A stretch of 33,331 nt of DNA from Eubacteriales bacterium (GTDB taxonomy: Bacteria > Bacillota > Clostridia > Oscillospirales > CAG-382): the NCBI GenBank assembly GCA_045636665.1, contig JAZTXY010000008.1, positions 1 through 33,331 on the forward strand, written 5' to 3'. Made by a program: the position numbers. Shown piece by piece: positions 12,001 to 18,000 of this stretch (position 1 is the first letter of the stretch; each line of letters starts with the position of its first letter).

Positions 12001-15000
12001 AATTGTTGAAAAACGAAGAACTGTGTGATACAATGTAGTAAATATATAAATGCGGAGGTTTTTTATGCACAGACTCTTGGCTACCGGCATGATCTTTTTC
12101 ATCCTTTTCGGTATATTGTTTCTCGGCGGTTTGGTTGCGACCATCGTTATGGTTGCGGTGCGTGCAGGCAATTTGAAAAACCGCGCAGGCGATGGCAAGC
12201 GTTCCTATTTTGACGGCGGCGCTTTTGCTTATATCGGCTTGTCGATACTCGTTGCGCTTATCGATGTGTTTTCGTTTGGCTTTGCCTATCCGTGGGCGCT
12301 TTGTCTTTTCCAAAAATGGGAAAAGAAGCACACTGTTATTAACGGACGAAGACTTTATTTCAAGGGTCAAGGCATTGAAATATTCGGTTGGAATATTCTT
12401 TGGAACTTCCTTTCTGTTATCACCTTCGGTATTTTTTCAATCTGGCGTGTTTATTACATTTACAAATGGACTGTGAAGAATACCGTTTATGACGACGGAT
12501 TCGGAATTGCCGAAAGCCGTTTCACGGGCGGTGGCGGCGCTTGGTTCGTTCATATGCTTTTCGTTTACCTTATGACGGTATTTTCGTTTGGATTTGCAAC
12601 TCCGTGGGCGATAAAGACCTATATCAAGTGGCAAACCGCCAATACCGAAATCGGCGGAAGTCCGCTTGTGTTCAAGGGTACGGGCGGTCAGCTTTTCGGC
12701 AGATATATGCTGTATATTCTGCTCAGCTTTTGCACGTTCGGATTTTTCGCGCTGTTTATTCCCGTGTTTTTAAAGGATTGGACGTGCTTCAACACCGATG
12801 CGCTTTATGCTACCGATGCTATTAAAAACGCAACCCTCTCGCACGAAAGATCGGCAATACGTGATTTTGCAAGCATCAAGATTGCCGCAAACCAATCGGC
12901 GCTTGAGCTTGAAAAAAGCGGTATAACCTCCGAAACTTCGGATTCGCAGATTGAAGAATTGGCATCACGCGGAAACGTTATTGCAAAATACCGTCTTGCG
13001 CTTATCAAAAAGGGTAATGACGAATCTTTTTCGGGCGAAGCACTTGATTTGTTAAAAACCGCATCGGATGCCGGTTATCATATCGCAATGTATGAATATG
13101 CGTCGTTGGCACAGACCGAGGATGAATTTTTGATGCTTCTTGACGGCAGTGCAAGACGCGGAAATATGCAGGCGGTTCGTAAGCTGAGAGAATTTTATAC
13201 CGAGCGCGGATATGACGTGACGCTTGGTGTTTCCGAAAGAACGAAAAATCTTTCGCTTGCGCTTTATTGGTTCAAAATCTCGCTTGAGCTTGGCGATCAG
13301 GAAGCGCTTAAGATGCAACAAAGCTACAACGGAATGCTTGAAACGTTAAGCTTGTTGCTTTGCGGAGAGCCTAATAACAGACCTTCTGCAAAGGTGAGCG
13401 TTGCGACGGTGGTTTGGACGTCGATATTAAGCGTTATTGTTCTTCTTCCTCTTATCATACTTCTCGGCGTCGCGCTTATCGGCGGTATATTTTTGATGGA
13501 AAACGACGCACCGCAACCCGAGCGTTTGGAGAGCGATGATTATGCTTACGTTTATCACGGTGAGGTCGAGCTTAAGGTAAACCGCGACAATCTTTACAGA
13601 GATAAATCGCAAATTTGCACGAACGATGAATTTTCACCGAATTTCGATTTCGATTTCGAGCTTGACGATCACGATGCCGAATTTTCGGGCAGACTCGGCG
13701 ATTATGCTTACGTCGATTATGACGAGGGCGTAACCTATATCGATTTCGGTATGGGCAATTGCGATTGGGACGGCGGTGATTATTGCTTCTATCTTGTCAG
13801 CGATGAATTCAATCGCGATGAAGACGGCACATACATTCCTCTTTGCGGAGTTGTCCGTCCGGGTGAAAGCATTTATAAGATAAATCACATTCTTCCCGAG
13901 GGAGAAATTACAATAAGCGTAATGATGTACAACGGACGCGTAGATAACCTTTTAGGCACTTCGTCGGCAGTTCAGGGCGGTACACATATCATTTTCAACG
14001 GTGACGAGATATTCCGTCCCTTCTGGGTTGCACAAATTTGCCGCAAAACGGTAACCGTTACGCGTTATACAGAGGGTGATTTGGACTTTGGAGAAAGCGA
14101 TGAATCGTCCGAAAACAGCGCATCGCTCGAAAACGTTATTGTCGGACATTGGGAAAGCGCAGTAAGAACCGATAACATTATCTTTTCAACTACTTACACC
14201 TTTAATTCCGACGGCACCTTTGAAATGGGCAGCTGTGAATATATGCACACGTCGTATGCACCCGAGCTGTTTTACGGTATGCCCGAGGGATGGCAAACTG
14301 TGCCGATGGGTTATCCCTATACCGCGGGAACGTATACCGTCGAAGGCGATCAAATTATTATGACGGGCACAGTGATGGAGGCGGGTGACGAATTGGCGTT
14401 TAACCTGGTCCTGACGGTAAGCGACAGCAATTCCGAATTTTTAACCGTCGTTAACGAAAGCGACAGAGAACAAAAGTATTACAAATGCAACACCGATACG
14501 TCTATTGAAGCGGTTTGCGATGCCTTGGGCATTTCCACAGCACCGTAAAATCAAATAAACAAAAAAGAGCCGTAAATGGCTCTTTTTATGTTTGTTAATT
14601 AGCCAGATCGATCCACATTGCGGCTCTGCTTTTATCGGGATTTTCGGGAATTACAAGGTCGCCAGAATCTACCAGGTCGTAAATGGTGCTCATTCGGGTG
14701 TGAAGTATAAACATTGCCGCCGCGTAATCTGCATCCTTGGCATTGTATTTCGTTGTGTCCTTTTTCACAAGCTCCTTGATCTCTTCGAAAAGCTTGGCGG
14801 TAAGCGCCATATATTCGTTGTAAAGAGGGTGCTCGTTAAACCGTTTAAGCATCGCCTTGCGTGCTTCATCGCTGATAACGAGAATGTCGGGAATGACAGT
14901 TCCGTTTTCCTCGTGTGCGAATTTGCCGTCGATCCCCGCCCAAATAAGCTGTTCGCTGACCGAAAAGCTTTCGACCTTTCTTGGGTTTTTGATAATATCC

Positions 15001-18000
15001 GCCAAAAACAGCATTTCGGTCCTATCCATTTCGCCGACACGGTTCCACATACCGAAATTGCTTATTTTGTACGCCCAGAATTGTGTTTCGCTGTTGAGTC
15101 CGCAACCGTTTTGACCTGAAAACATTGGCCTCGGAAGCGTAACCGATTCATATCCCATAAAGCCCCAATCCTCGCCGTTTGCTCGGATTTTGGGTATGTA
15201 CCCTAAAATGCTTTCCGGCTCTGCGCCGCAGGCGTAATTTGCCGCAAGGTCAGGGATAAACATTGCAGCCCACCACTTAACGTCGTTATCGCCCATGTTG
15301 TCGGGAACAATGCTGAGCGAGCGTATAAACGGCATCGACGAATCGATTATTTTGTTGATAATATCACTGCGCTTTTTGGATTCCTTTAAGATAGTATCGT
15401 TGATCTTCAGCTGACATTCTGCGCTCGAAATATAAAAATCGGTGATATATCTTTCGTCATCAAGCTTTTTAAGCAACGTCGCATCAACGAGAAGCTTTAT
15501 TTCCTCCTCCATATAAGGCATCGCAATGCCCAATGCCACCGCAAGCTCTTCGGCGGTCGAGGGGTTGTTACTTGCTTCTATAAGTATGTTTTTTGGGATG
15601 CTTCTTTGTACTGCAGACCAAGGCAAACCACTCGGTTGGTTTCCGCTTGACGAAAAGTCGATATCTTCGGGGTTGTAGCTTTTTGCTCCAAATTGTCTTG
15701 CCATATTCATACCTTCCTTCAATATATTACGCGCACGGTAAAGTTTAGTCATAACCGTGCCTTTCGGGAGCTTTAATGAGTCGGCAATATCGTTTACCTT
15801 TCGGTCTTTGATATAAAACTCAACGATTATGTTCCTGTAATCCGCCGATATAAACGCCAATTCGCGTTTAAGAAGTGCTATTTCATCACTATGTATAACA
15901 TCGTTTTCGATATTGCGTTTGTCGGCTATTTCAAAAGAGTCAAAATCATTCGTTAATACTGCTTCGTTATATCTGCGCCTTTTGTCTGCCCACCCGCTAT
16001 AGCGGTTGCGCGCTATTTGCCACACCCAAGCAGGGAAGTTATCGGGAACGAATCCTTTTTTCAGTGTAGTGAGGATGTTGACCGAGATGTCGGAGGCAAG
16101 GTCCTCGGCATCAAATCGGTTTCCCGTCTTTTTAAGACAAAAGTAAAACAGCTTTTCGGAGTATTGATGAATAAATATTTCCGAAAATTCGTTTTGTCCG
16201 CTCATTTTTTCGCCTCCCTTCGTACATATAGTGTAGGAATTTTAAAATTGATTTCAAAAAATCATACTACCGAAATGAAAATTTATCGAATACGGTATAT
16301 AAAACAAGGCAAAAGAGCACTTTGCGTGCTCTTTTGGTTTTGATTATTGTTTCTTTTTCTTAATGATTATGATTTCCGCAACCGTGAATGCGATAACGAC
16401 GGCAAAGCCGATAATGACCCAAAGCAGAGCGCTGAGCTCGCCGCTTTCTTCGGTTGTCGGTTGCGAAGCCTCGGTATCGGTCGATTCTTGGGCTTCGGTG
16501 TTATCGTCTTTTGAAACGGGGGAGCTTATTTCGTCATCGTCGGACTTGCTCGATTCGTTGTTGCCTTTTGATTCTTCGGGGATGCTTGAGGATTCATTAT
16601 CGACAGAAGCATCGTTGTCGTTCTTCGATTCATCGCCCTTCGATTCATCGCCCTTCGATTCATCGGGCTTGGATTCGTCGGGCTTGGATTCGTTGGGCTT
16701 GGATTCATCGGGCTTAGATTCGTCGGGCTCGGATTCATCGGGCTTGGATTCATCGGGCTTGGATTCATCGGGATTCGATTTATCGGGCTCGGATTCATCA
16801 ACGACCGTTCCGTTTTTAACGCCGACAAGAAATTCCGAGCAGAATACAAATGCGCCGCCCATACCGCCGAATGACATTTTAACATATCTCGCGCTTACGG
16901 GGTTCGTTTCGTATTTGAAGCAGGAGTTATTTTCATCCAAAATAAGCTTAGGCTTTGTAAGCTCACGGAAGGTTTTGCCGTCGTTGGAAATGCTTAATAC
17001 GATTCCTGTAGGAGAGCCGATGCCTGCGATCATACGGTTGTCGAAATGAGCGTAAAAATGAGTCAAGTCGGTTCGTATCTCTCCAAGGTCGACGGTTATG
17101 CTCATTTTACCGTTAGAGTCGGTTATGGAGTGGTGGAAGGCGTGCCAATCGGTGCTTAATGCCTTTTTGGCGAGTATTCCGTCGGTAAGCTCCTTGCCGT
17201 CTACCTTTTGGTAATCTGCGCCGTTGCCGTCAACATAGGATCTGCAACCCGAATATTTTTTGCCGACCGAAATCCAATCGACGTTTTTAGCCATAAGCGA
17301 GCTGAGACCGATATCGTCAACGTATTCATATTCGGTGGTTACTTGGGCAGGACGTACCTTGTCGATTTCCGCTTGGGTAAGCGTACCCTTTGCATACTTA
17401 TAAGTCAGGTCGTAAACCATACGGAATTGCGGATTGCTTGAATAACACGCTTGGTAATAAACCGCGGTTTTGCCGTCTTGGTAGTACATTTTAACGGCAT
17501 CCATCATCGAGGAGTTGATACCGCCTTCGAGATAACTAAGATATCTTGCGAAATATTCGTCGGTATAAACTCTGCCGTCGCATTCCATTTCCATACAAAG
17601 ACCGTATTTTTCGGAAAGCTCGATGCTTTTCTTTACACGGTTGGGGTCGTTATAGCCGAGCCACATAAGGTTGGGCTGCATACAAGCGACGTCAAAGCCG
17701 TAGCTTTGCCATTTATTGTAGCCGTTTGCCTCGTACCAAGGAATCCATATAAATTTCAAGCCCTTGGAATGGAGATAATCCGAGGCGTACTTAATAAGCT
17801 CGCCGTCGCCGCTTGCGGCGGTGAATTCCTCAAGCCAATAAAAGCCGACAAGGTCAAGATGCTTATAACCCTTCTGTTCAAAGCGCTTTATCTGCTCGTC
17901 GATCATCCATTTAAGAGCGTATTTTCTGTCCTCAAGCTTCGAGAAATTAAGGCTTTTTCCGCCCAACGAGCCGAAATTGGTGGCTTCGGTGCTGGGGTAG

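Follow-up and report, generated by a model that had tools for sequence, protein, structure and literature searches.

The gene running from 16205 to 14595 in the window, the 33,331-nucleotide stretch of Eubacteriales DNA analysed here, encodes what is, by its sequence, a genuine ECF (group 4 sigma70) factor with a soluble 369-amino-acid extension. Promoter conservation and covariation make it very probable that the long form of this protein is an ECF sigma factor that reads the promoter before its own gene. Comparison of homologous reading frames further leads us to expect, with good confidence, a second site of translation initiation at codon 168, which would yield the 369-amino-acid extension as a free protein. 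The initial annotation had proposed a so far unclassified family of ECF factors that carry a soluble extension and are read from a self-promoter, and this proposal is supported. The analysis adds a conserved, predicted internal start, a second, degenerate winged helix, copies that lack the sigma core and a candidate target gene.

A soluble ECF fusion family

No sigma3 match was found by Pfam in the 536-amino-acid protein, and TIGR02937 scores over its cut-off in five of five proteins. As first annotated, the extension carries no transmembrane segment: its 19-residue hydropathy peaks at 1.07, and in a family alignment of 148 extensions the value exceeds 1.6 in five rows and 1.8 in one. The gene is monocistronic and flanked by two terminator-like hairpins (Table 1). 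The absence of a partner gene was likewise borne out, in that a comparison of 232 ORFs around 39 homologs found no conserved neighbour; the largest neighbour cluster, an ABC ATPase, is present at six loci and varies in position.

Four paralogs of 536, 517, 540 and 548 amino acids were found in the genome, matching the predicted range of 517–548, with extensions that measure 359–382 residues rather than the 350 first given. A profile built from the extension alone finds 348 clusters at 50% identity with E ≤ 1e-30, a number that rises to 1,496 at E ≤ 1e-3. In the genus survey the family occurs in 13 of 24 genomes, as had been reported, with up to seven matches per genome. The family is not restricted to small uncultured genomes: across the bacterial family f26 the fusion gene is carried by 19 of 101 genomes, which span 2.7–7.5 Mb among the matches listed, and some of these carriers are assembled in one or two contigs. 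No longer fused forms were found among 7,999 candidates, which is weak evidence, and no clean operons of unfused sigma and extension genes among the homolog matches listed. The short open frames among these matches are fragments, apparent frameshifts, contig ends or sigma-less copies.

Table 1. Features of the sigma-fusion locus (window coordinates)
Feature	Coordinates	Strand	Basis or detail
Terminator-like hairpin, end of upstream DUF4855 gene	16310..16336	.	
-35 element, TGAAATC in this gene; family consensus TG(C/T)AACC	16250..16256	-	
-10 element CACTATAT	16226..16233	-	CTAT invariant, first C in 38/39 dereplicated homologs
Predicted +1	16221	-	inferred from spacing and conserved Y-G
Long-form Shine-Dalgarno (SD)	16213..16221	-	-14.4 kcal/mol, duplex model
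Full-length ECF sigma fusion, long form, 536 aa	14595..16205	-	ORF and domain searches
Sigma2 domain, residues 12-76	15978..16172	-	Pfam PF04542 (Sigma70_r2), E 4.3e-6, over cut-off
Sigma4 domain, residues 120-160	15726..15848	-	Pfam PF08281 (Sigma70_r4_2), E 3.7e-5, just under cut-off
Internal SD, within codons of K163-E164-G165	15711..15719	-	-9.9 kcal/mol, duplex model
Predicted short form, extension alone, 369 aa, from in-frame ATG codon 168	14595..15704	-	
First winged helix, about residues 202-259, ArsR-like fold, acidic recognition helix	15429..15602	-	model and structure search
Variable alpha/beta C-terminal domain, residues 260-536	14598..15428	-	no clear fold match
Second, degenerate winged helix, about residues 391-443	14877..15035	-	weak matches, Z about 5
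Bidirectional terminator-like hairpin, common to sigma-fusion gene and convergent gene	14562..14587	.	

Recognition of the self-promoter

The CACTATAT promoter of this gene is the top match in the genome scan. The motif AAC-N17-ACTA, put forward at first as the self-promoter of the family, did not survive: it has 38 matches in the genome, only the promoter of the C86 paralog is among them, and the gene studied here has TGAAATC at its -35.

Sigma4 residues 149–154 covary with the bases of the -35 element. Specifically, in 22 of 22 genes Lys152 goes together with a C at one position of the -35, a combination seen in 0 of 18 others, and on the tree this base changes eight times, with at least four of the changes forced by starred branches. 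Because the -35 bases covary with sigma4.2 residues, autoregulation is supported at the level of sequence. The initial annotation had derived its pattern from the very upstream regions it was meant to explain, and this worry about circularity is removed by held-out loci, by a scan trained without this genome and by the same covariation.

The data do not point to a large regulon, given that the promoter pattern has 72 matches in 31 genomes compared with 129 matches for a reversed control that is not composition-matched. A second promoter pattern failed to separate carriers from non-carriers among 25 genomes. The second regulon member is probably a 210-amino-acid membrane protein, a candidate target that would mark a departure from a purely self-contained loop.

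A conserved, probable internal translation start

Several measures single out the boundary between sigma core and extension. The six top scores for synonymous constraint among 219 scored columns all fall at codons 157–170, and Arg170 is spelled AGA in 39 of 40 genes, where 9.7 are expected. Codon 168 is ATG in 71 of 73 genes and TTG or GTG in one each. The SD before it ranks first to third of the internal in-frame starts in all 40 genes examined, and local folding is weakest in this start region. Junction SD strength is -9.3 kcal/mol as observed and -6.2 kcal/mol after synonymous shuffling, with none of 300 shuffles equalling it.

The same arrangement recurs in homologs. Among divergent loci (mean identity 23%), an SD with a start is present in 22 of 23, compared with 9 of 1,022 background windows, and is spelled there by differing amino acids. 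Corresponding values are 36 of 38 (background 59 of 1,675) in a second homolog set and 18 of 19 (background 16 of 858) in a third. By contrast, control sigma-DUF1835 fusions from the same bacterial family as the 18 of 19 genes have an internal SD and start in only 1 of 11 cases. Across the family the main SD is the stronger of the two (mean -11.6 versus -8.8 for the internal SD), and an excess of short form like that of TipAS is therefore not implied. Our literature search, largely of papers outside subscription, found no sigma-factor gene with such an in-frame short form.

The junction block might instead go unused as a start and be either the relic of a two-gene operon or a DNA block through which extensions are swapped, such that the 536-amino-acid protein alone matters. 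Such a history would fit the way in which the block acts as conserved DNA, in that otherwise unlike contigs align to the gene only at about 15687–15725 (4/4 alignment runs), and the fact that the purine-rich K/E/G/R codons already reach -6.2 kcal/mol once synonymously shuffled. However, among divergent homologs the letters vary while SD strength, spacing and start codon stay, codon 168 is substituted by other start codons only, the SD is stronger than its synonymous expectation and the site is missing from the sigma-DUF1835 fusions. We consider this alternative improbable, and favour use of codon 168 as a start.

Intact sigma-less copies also exist in one lineage under the family promoter, beside a full gene at one locus (L141) and on five metagenome contigs. 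These copies have a single common deletion junction and are 97–100% identical, and thus represent one event, not repeated selection.

Structure of the extension

Modelled alone, the extension folds with a pLDDT of 94.6 and a pTM of 0.92. Its N-terminal 90 residues are conserved and the remainder is variable (148 rows). The ArsR-like winged helix of the initial annotation stands as a fold, with CzrA (1r1u) as its best structure match (Z 9.9, rmsd 2.0, 80 aligned). ArsR function does not follow: mean net charge in the family alignment is -3.3 for the recognition helix and -3.8 for the winged helix, and across 148 rows no Cys or His column that could supply conserved metal ligands reaches 40% or rises above 0.35. 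As judged from this alignment, the winged helix is probably not an ArsR-type DNA binder.

These charges and the lack of a conserved Cys/His column weigh against a role of the winged helix in ArsR-type repression by DNA binding or in metal sensing, in which the free extension would repress the promoter through a CAC-N7-GTG half-palindrome over the -10 and +1. This reading draws on the ArsR/SmtB structures that head the fold matches and on the G(T/C)GAA sequence after the -10, which is conserved even where the ribosome-binding site lies far off; the bases downstream of the -10 presumably fit an ordinary start-site preference. We regard it as very improbable.

The C-terminal domain, which the initial annotation had not folded in isolation, was modelled alone and gave no clear fold match. 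No match exceeds Z 6.5 (VIA), the best being DrdV (rmsd 4.2, 141 aligned), and the weak similarities to TbtD (Z 5.7) and to the C-terminal region of NisB (Z 5.2) serve as leads only. Foldseek searches with the extension or the C-terminal domain returned nothing at E ≤ 0.001 in PDB or BFVD, a PDB sequence search nothing useful, and the ESM Atlas hypothetical clusters and generic HTH clusters only. A relationship to DUF1803 is not supported (hhalign probability 0.1, one protein compared).

Conservation is high over the first ten residues of the extension, yet these are poorly ordered in the extension-alone model (pLDDT 52), as would be expected of an arm that binds a partner. Dimers are usual among ArsR-type folds. 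The short form could be a required subunit, the active or signal-competent species being a hetero-oligomer in which the extension links long and short forms and each complex holds a single sigma core. A precedent is offered by CRISPR-Cas complexes, for which the available text of bioRxiv 10.1101/2020.04.18.045682 describes a needed subunit made by internal in-frame translation. But the extension already combines two winged helices in a single compact chain, which may take the place of a dimer, and packing against the sigma core in cis may be all that the conserved arm does. We judge such an assembly quite unlikely.

A proposed switch-and-damper loop from a single gene

Our preferred, still tentative model is a TipA/AlbA-like loop built on an ECF sigma factor, in which one gene gives two proteins; we would not be surprised if some link of the whole chain failed. 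The long form would act as an ECF sigma at the promoter of its own gene, and a second initiation at codon 168 would supply the 369-residue extension as a free cytoplasmic protein. In line with its conserved N-terminal part, variable remainder and acidic helix, the extension may serve as a sensor. A cytoplasmic signal would be bound by the variable C-terminal domain, and the conserved acidic winged helix, rather than contacting DNA, would pass this signal on to the sigma core to which it is fused. Signal binding would then make the long form active and amplify both proteins, and the free extension would compete for the signal, thus buffering the loop and shutting it off. The regulon would be small, comprising the sigma-fusion gene itself and probably the 210-amino-acid membrane protein.

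A self-activating ECF factor needs a brake, and the extension could itself be a fused soluble anti-sigma, with the internal start adding free anti-sigma that binds the core in trans. This free protein would set a threshold and stop runaway positive feedback until a signal releases or degrades it. In unfused ECF genes of the same genomes an SD lies at roughly this position, within the same last sigma4 helix, and serves an overlapping next gene. The extension occupies the next-gene place of unfused ECF operons, which speaks for descent from an anti-sigma. In addition, the winged helix has a conserved, acidic surface that could bind the basic sigma4 helix; complex prediction for sigma core and extension scored 0.00, which we take as evidence neither way. 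However, the extension is unlike known anti-sigma domains in Pfam and structure searches, a fused inhibitor is already local and 1:1, and the ECF41 and ECF42 extensions are, according to the available part of PMC7826278 Text S2, partly or fully required for activity. We hold a fused anti-sigma to be rather unlikely.

The same kind of junction is found in two unrelated extension families, so the internal start reaches beyond this sensor. A broader reading, unlikely in our estimation, is that two products come from each of many Bacillota ECF fusion genes, in this family and in at least two unrelated extension families. On its own, the extension would be a cytoplasmic effector that binds and sequesters a toxic peptide or small molecule, for example a microbial antibiotic, and the sigma would mainly amplify it. 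Such genes would constitute mobile, single-gene, self-inducing sequestration cassettes, with paralogs insulated by co-evolving sigma4/-35 pairs.

ECF factors with fused extensions are currently treated as single proteins under cis regulation. If the extension is also made alone, positive and negative feedback arms would share one reading frame, and, if the loop model is true, the switch and its damper would lie within one gene. The family is large and present in near-complete genomes, and its natural sigma4/-35 variants supply a recognition code that is already at hand for building orthogonal promoters in Bacillota of the gut.

Comparison with known systems

The fusion family appears to match no extension group of ECF 2.0, from which it is set apart by group descriptions only. 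ECF264 (sigma-DUF1835, Firmicutes) resembles it in having a soluble C-terminal extension of about 350 amino acids without an anti-sigma gene, according to the available part of Casas-Pastor 2021 (PMC7826278 Text S2), which also gives an ECF264 promoter, GTAACCTT / GGCACATT, related to that of the family. We find GTAACC..GGCACTAT upstream of three sigma-DUF1835 loci (L239, L240 and L250). Unlike ECF264, the family has DUF1835 in 0 of 31 extensions (25 of 29 families listed, E ≤ 0.1), and a Pfam scan of the full-length 536-amino-acid protein gave no DUF1835 match. A quick tree places the 11 sigma-DUF1835 cores on one branch (support 99) and the 31 family cores on a separate one (83, not starred). 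ECF262, as far as its available description goes, likewise comprises Clostridiales proteins with varied C-terminal extensions, no anti-sigma gene and sometimes tandem copies. The same description gives ECF262 transmembrane helices in some members, mixed domains and promoters that are not conserved, whereas in the fusion family, compared by description, the soluble extensions are all homologous and the promoter is strongly conserved, though the two groups may overlap in part.

According to the available text of PMC8999054, the extension of ECF41, ECF42 and ECF56 (SnoaL or TPR) likewise takes the place of an anti-sigma and is considered a modulator of the core; that text mentions no independently translated extension. 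Their extensions are different and shorter, and they have conserved neighbour genes of their own. The ArsR/SmtB proteins CzrA, CadC and SmtB share the winged-helix fold; the family differs from them in lacking conserved metal ligands, in its acidic recognition helix and in placing the winged helix inside a 369-residue domain.

The closest functional parallel under our model is with the MerR-family proteins TipA of Streptomyces lividans and AlbA of Klebsiella oxytoca, each of which, in the available parts of PMC11098121 and PMC6078987, gives long and short in-frame products from one gene; in TipA the long isoform autoactivates and the short isoform, from an in-frame start, sequesters. By hypothesis, the sigma-fusion gene would likewise pair a long form that activates its own promoter with a short form that is the effector domain alone. 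TipA and AlbA are MerR activators with a MerR HTH, a coiled coil and helical drug-binding domains, whereas the sigma-fusion gene joins an ECF core to an alpha/beta module with two winged helices and is not a TipA member.

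A sigma factor fusion that would read its own promoter

The gene for the ECF sigma fusion stands alone between terminator-like hairpins that flank it on both sides, and no recognised domain is found beyond sigma4 (residue 160) of its 536-aa product. Three paralogs in the same genome (G000) encode proteins of 517, 540 and 548 aa with 20–23% identity. The family is real. A profile of the extension alone retrieves 1,496 clusters (50% identity) at E ≤ 1e-3, of which 348 reach E ≤ 1e-30. The initial annotation reported no partner gene, and this holds among 232 ORFs around 39 dereplicated homologs, which include no conserved neighbour.

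Upstream of these 39 homologs lies a consensus of fixed spacing, TG(C/T)AACC-N16-CACTATAT-NN-G(T/C)GAA. A matrix trained on them, none being from G000, gives the promoter of the subject gene the top score in that genome (23.2 versus 16.5). Among held-out loci, which are mostly divergent, 11 of 23 score at p ≤ 0.05 and the remaining 12 are not significant or lack a site. A broader matrix, likewise built from loci outside G000, places the four self-promoters at ranks 1, 2, 5 and 28 among 256 matches. The pattern originally proposed, AAC-N17-ACTA, performs poorly, as only one of the four self-promoters is among its 38 matches in G000.

Residues 149–154, in the sigma4.2 helix, are the best trackers of the variable −35 bases among roughly 520 protein columns. 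Lys152 pairs with C at one −35 position (22/22 genes), whereas T accompanies Met, Leu, Thr or Cys at this residue (10/10) and G accompanies Glu or Gln (7/8). Mapped on the extension tree, the C label changes eight times, at least four of these changes being forced by starred branches. This covariation is the strongest support for a sigma factor that probably reads its own promoter and, together with the motif and the matrices trained outside G000, bears out the self-promoter of the initial annotation. Just upstream of the ECF −35, 10 of 40 genes (upstream regions of loci L004–L083) carry an extended −10 sigma-A-like element, where shuffles predict 0.8; it is a likely source of basal transcription.

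Locations of the genes and sites discussed (G, genomes; C, contigs; L, homolog loci compared)
Feature	Location	Strand	Description
ECF sigma fusion ORF	window 16205..14595	-	536 aa; sigma2 residues 12–76, sigma4 residues 120–160
832-aa protein gene	window 12050–14548		N-terminal DUF898/DUF6693 membrane region, long unannotated remainder
DUF4855 gene	window 16344–18479
Tandem 15-bp repeats in DUF4855 gene	window 16620–16800		encode (S/E)KPDE-type linker before C-terminal membrane anchor
Candidate target gene	G000:C86:114476–115105 (region to 115240, L273)		210-aa protein; family-type site upstream of sigma-A-like promoter
Sigma-less copies	L141:3667–4861 and 8186–9380		1,195-bp exact duplication, starting 10 bases before −35
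Family-type promoters, no sigma gene behind	L120, L122 (near position 1530)	-
Second fusion family, 870–1,055 aa	G000:C121 (L223:3275–5887)	-
Second fusion family, 870–1,055 aa	L051:2589–5756		directly upstream of a subject-family member
Third fusion family, ~420 aa	L334:1573–2841		AACC..GACTATAT promoter
Third fusion family, ~420 aa	L308:1498–2832		AACC..GACTATAT promoter

A probable internal start, conserved at the domain boundary

At the sigma–extension boundary the window reads TTG AAG GAA GGT ATG AAT ATG GCA AGA. Codon usage was analysed in 73 genes of 500–560 aa (40 after dereplication at 65%), a set that leaves out L071, the three G000 paralogs and any locus whose ORF was short, missing or mis-picked. 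Of 219 synonymous columns, the six under the strongest constraint all fall at codons 157–170; the mean column z of 1.9 indicates that relatedness inflates all columns, and the junction columns are far higher. Codon 168 is ATG in 71 of the 73 genes, TTG in one and GTG in one. Among internal in-frame starts, its Shine–Dalgarno (SD) sequence takes first place in 25 of the 40 genes, second place in 12 and third place in 3, and this is also where local folding is weakest. Because G000 yielded no 16S end, duplex scores use a generic anti-SD motif.

The same arrangement recurs in divergent loci, where 22 of 23 have an in-frame start with an SD of −7 kcal/mol or stronger 9–14 codons past the last sigma4 arginine, compared with 9 of 1,022 windows elsewhere (of 27 loci taken, these 23 have ORFs of at least 400 aa; the four genes of G000 and two pairs of near-duplicates are among them). 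The residues that spell the SD differ among them (KEG, KKEV, QGEA, KRG, KERM, RGE). Observed SD strength is −9.3 versus −6.2 after synonymous shuffling, and none of 300 shuffles reaches it; shuffling thus accounts for part of the strength, not the whole. A boundary start with SD is present in 36 of 38 genes of a second set (drawn from 40 loci, some of them shared with the first sets; background 59/1,675), in 18 of 19 of a third (background 16/858) and in 1 of 11 control sigma–DUF1835 fusions of the same size and bacterial family. At the level of sequence, these patterns point to a conserved internal start at codon 168.

When four public DNA assemblies are aligned to the gene, otherwise unlike contigs match only over about 15687–15725, a second pile of such alignments covers a conserved sigma2 motif, and no indels within the reading frame are listed. 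That the junction is an unused relic or a recombination block strikes us as quite improbable.

Structure and proposed role of the extension

We tentatively favour a TipA-like loop. The long form would drive its own promoter, initiation at codon 168 would yield the free extension, the extension would sense a signal, and its free form, competing for that signal, would damp the loop.

Folded alone, the extension is predicted to form one compact fold (pLDDT 94.6, pTM 0.92), with conservation concentrated in its first 90 residues. The ArsR-like winged helix of the initial annotation survives as a fold, the predicted model matching ArsR/SmtB proteins (Z 9.9, rmsd 2.0, 80 aligned), but not in its functional features: the recognition helix is acidic (PYxEEE-type, mean net charge −3.3) and the alignment contains no conserved Cys or His column. 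An ArsR-like repressor is hence scarcely credible, and both features suggest a protein-contact surface instead. The free extension might also act in trans as an anti-sigma factor, which we consider unlikely. Residues 258–536, the C-terminal domain that had not previously been folded alone, give a confident predicted model (pLDDT 95.7) with a second weak winged helix inside; that helix aside, structure searches return no match above Z 6.5.

Natural copies lacking the sigma part also exist. In locus L141 a full gene precedes two further copies that consist of the extension only; the sigma part is deleted from both, and each retains the family promoter 62 bases upstream of the internal ATG. Of seven metagenome matches, five show this deletion and two are unrelated. 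All seven sigma-less copies are intact; among their variable codons, 16 are synonymous and 12 non-synonymous. Given their 97–100% identity and single common junction, they are treated as one event, on contigs that are perhaps not independent samples. Four different flanks lie upstream of the cassette on the various contigs, and the duplication in L141 is possibly an assembly artefact. A short form that is a required partner subunit of the long one appears improbable to us; a TipA-like loop remains our preferred reading.

Possible targets

Promoter-pattern scans of the genomes, whose two controls are both imperfect, give no sign of a large regulon. One candidate member is a 210-aa protein that begins with a hydrophobic stretch and has no significant match in Pfam. 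A family-type site (p ≤ 0.05) precedes its gene in seven of the nine close orthologs and in none of the 19 homologs that are more distant (two loci without upstream sequence or without a match were dropped), and a 23% identical homolog in another genome (G315) also has one. The site may be a relic, because the candidate was chosen by the motif itself and its likeness to the promoter of the resident sigma gene extends to the spacer. A sister ECF fusion family has a similar promoter, so either sigma factor could drive this gene.

Two further loci have family-type promoters without a sigma gene, which may be targets or scars; in L120 the site lies ahead of a short leader ORF, which has a hairpin, and of a gene for the membrane subunit of an ABC transporter.

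Origin and spread

Most unfused ECF genes in the genomes compared carry, in their last sigma4 codons, an SD that serves an overlapping next gene. On the simplest history, the genes of a coupled operon fused and selection has maintained the start of the partner. Two other, unrelated fusion families also combine an SD with an in-frame ATG at the boundary, in two genes examined each: the long family, with a DUF3108-like and a weak TPR match, and the ~420-aa family, whose ~255-aa extension does not match the profile of the subject family.

The family is patchy, occurring in 13 of 301 genomes of a phylum draw (G000 counted), 13 of 24 of the genus and 19 of 101 of bacterial family f26. Lachnospiraceae and Oscillospiraceae are intermixed in a tree of 40 extensions, and of 10 genomes inspected (G000 counted) just two have the gene after the DUF4855 gene; both observations fit horizontal movement. 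The site behind the DUF4855 gene (in the window and at loci L179 and L180) is occupied by the subject family in both G000 and G455, by the long fusion family in G469 and, to judge by its final codons, by the 420-aa family in G464; it is possibly a landing spot for ECF cassettes. The 832-aa protein gene has no DNA-level match beside the sigma gene in G455. Split, apparently frameshifted members occur in G099:C21, G150:C29 (L096) and L255.

Comparison with known systems

In Text S2 of the ECF 2.0 classification (PMC7826278), none of the group descriptions consulted matches the family and the term 'ArsR' is absent. The closest in size and promoter is ECF264, whose DUF1835 is absent from the extension. 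The new ECF group of the initial annotation is thus upheld against these descriptions as an ungrouped family, although it may be listed in Tables S1–S5 as ECF262 or unclassified. ECF 2.0 reports sigma–DUF1835 fusions mostly from Paenibacillaceae; they are also present in family f26. The most interesting property of the subject family is the probable second product of the sigma fusion gene, which recalls TipA of the MerR family, one gene with a long autoactivating and a short sequestering in-frame product (PMC11098121 and PMC6078987).
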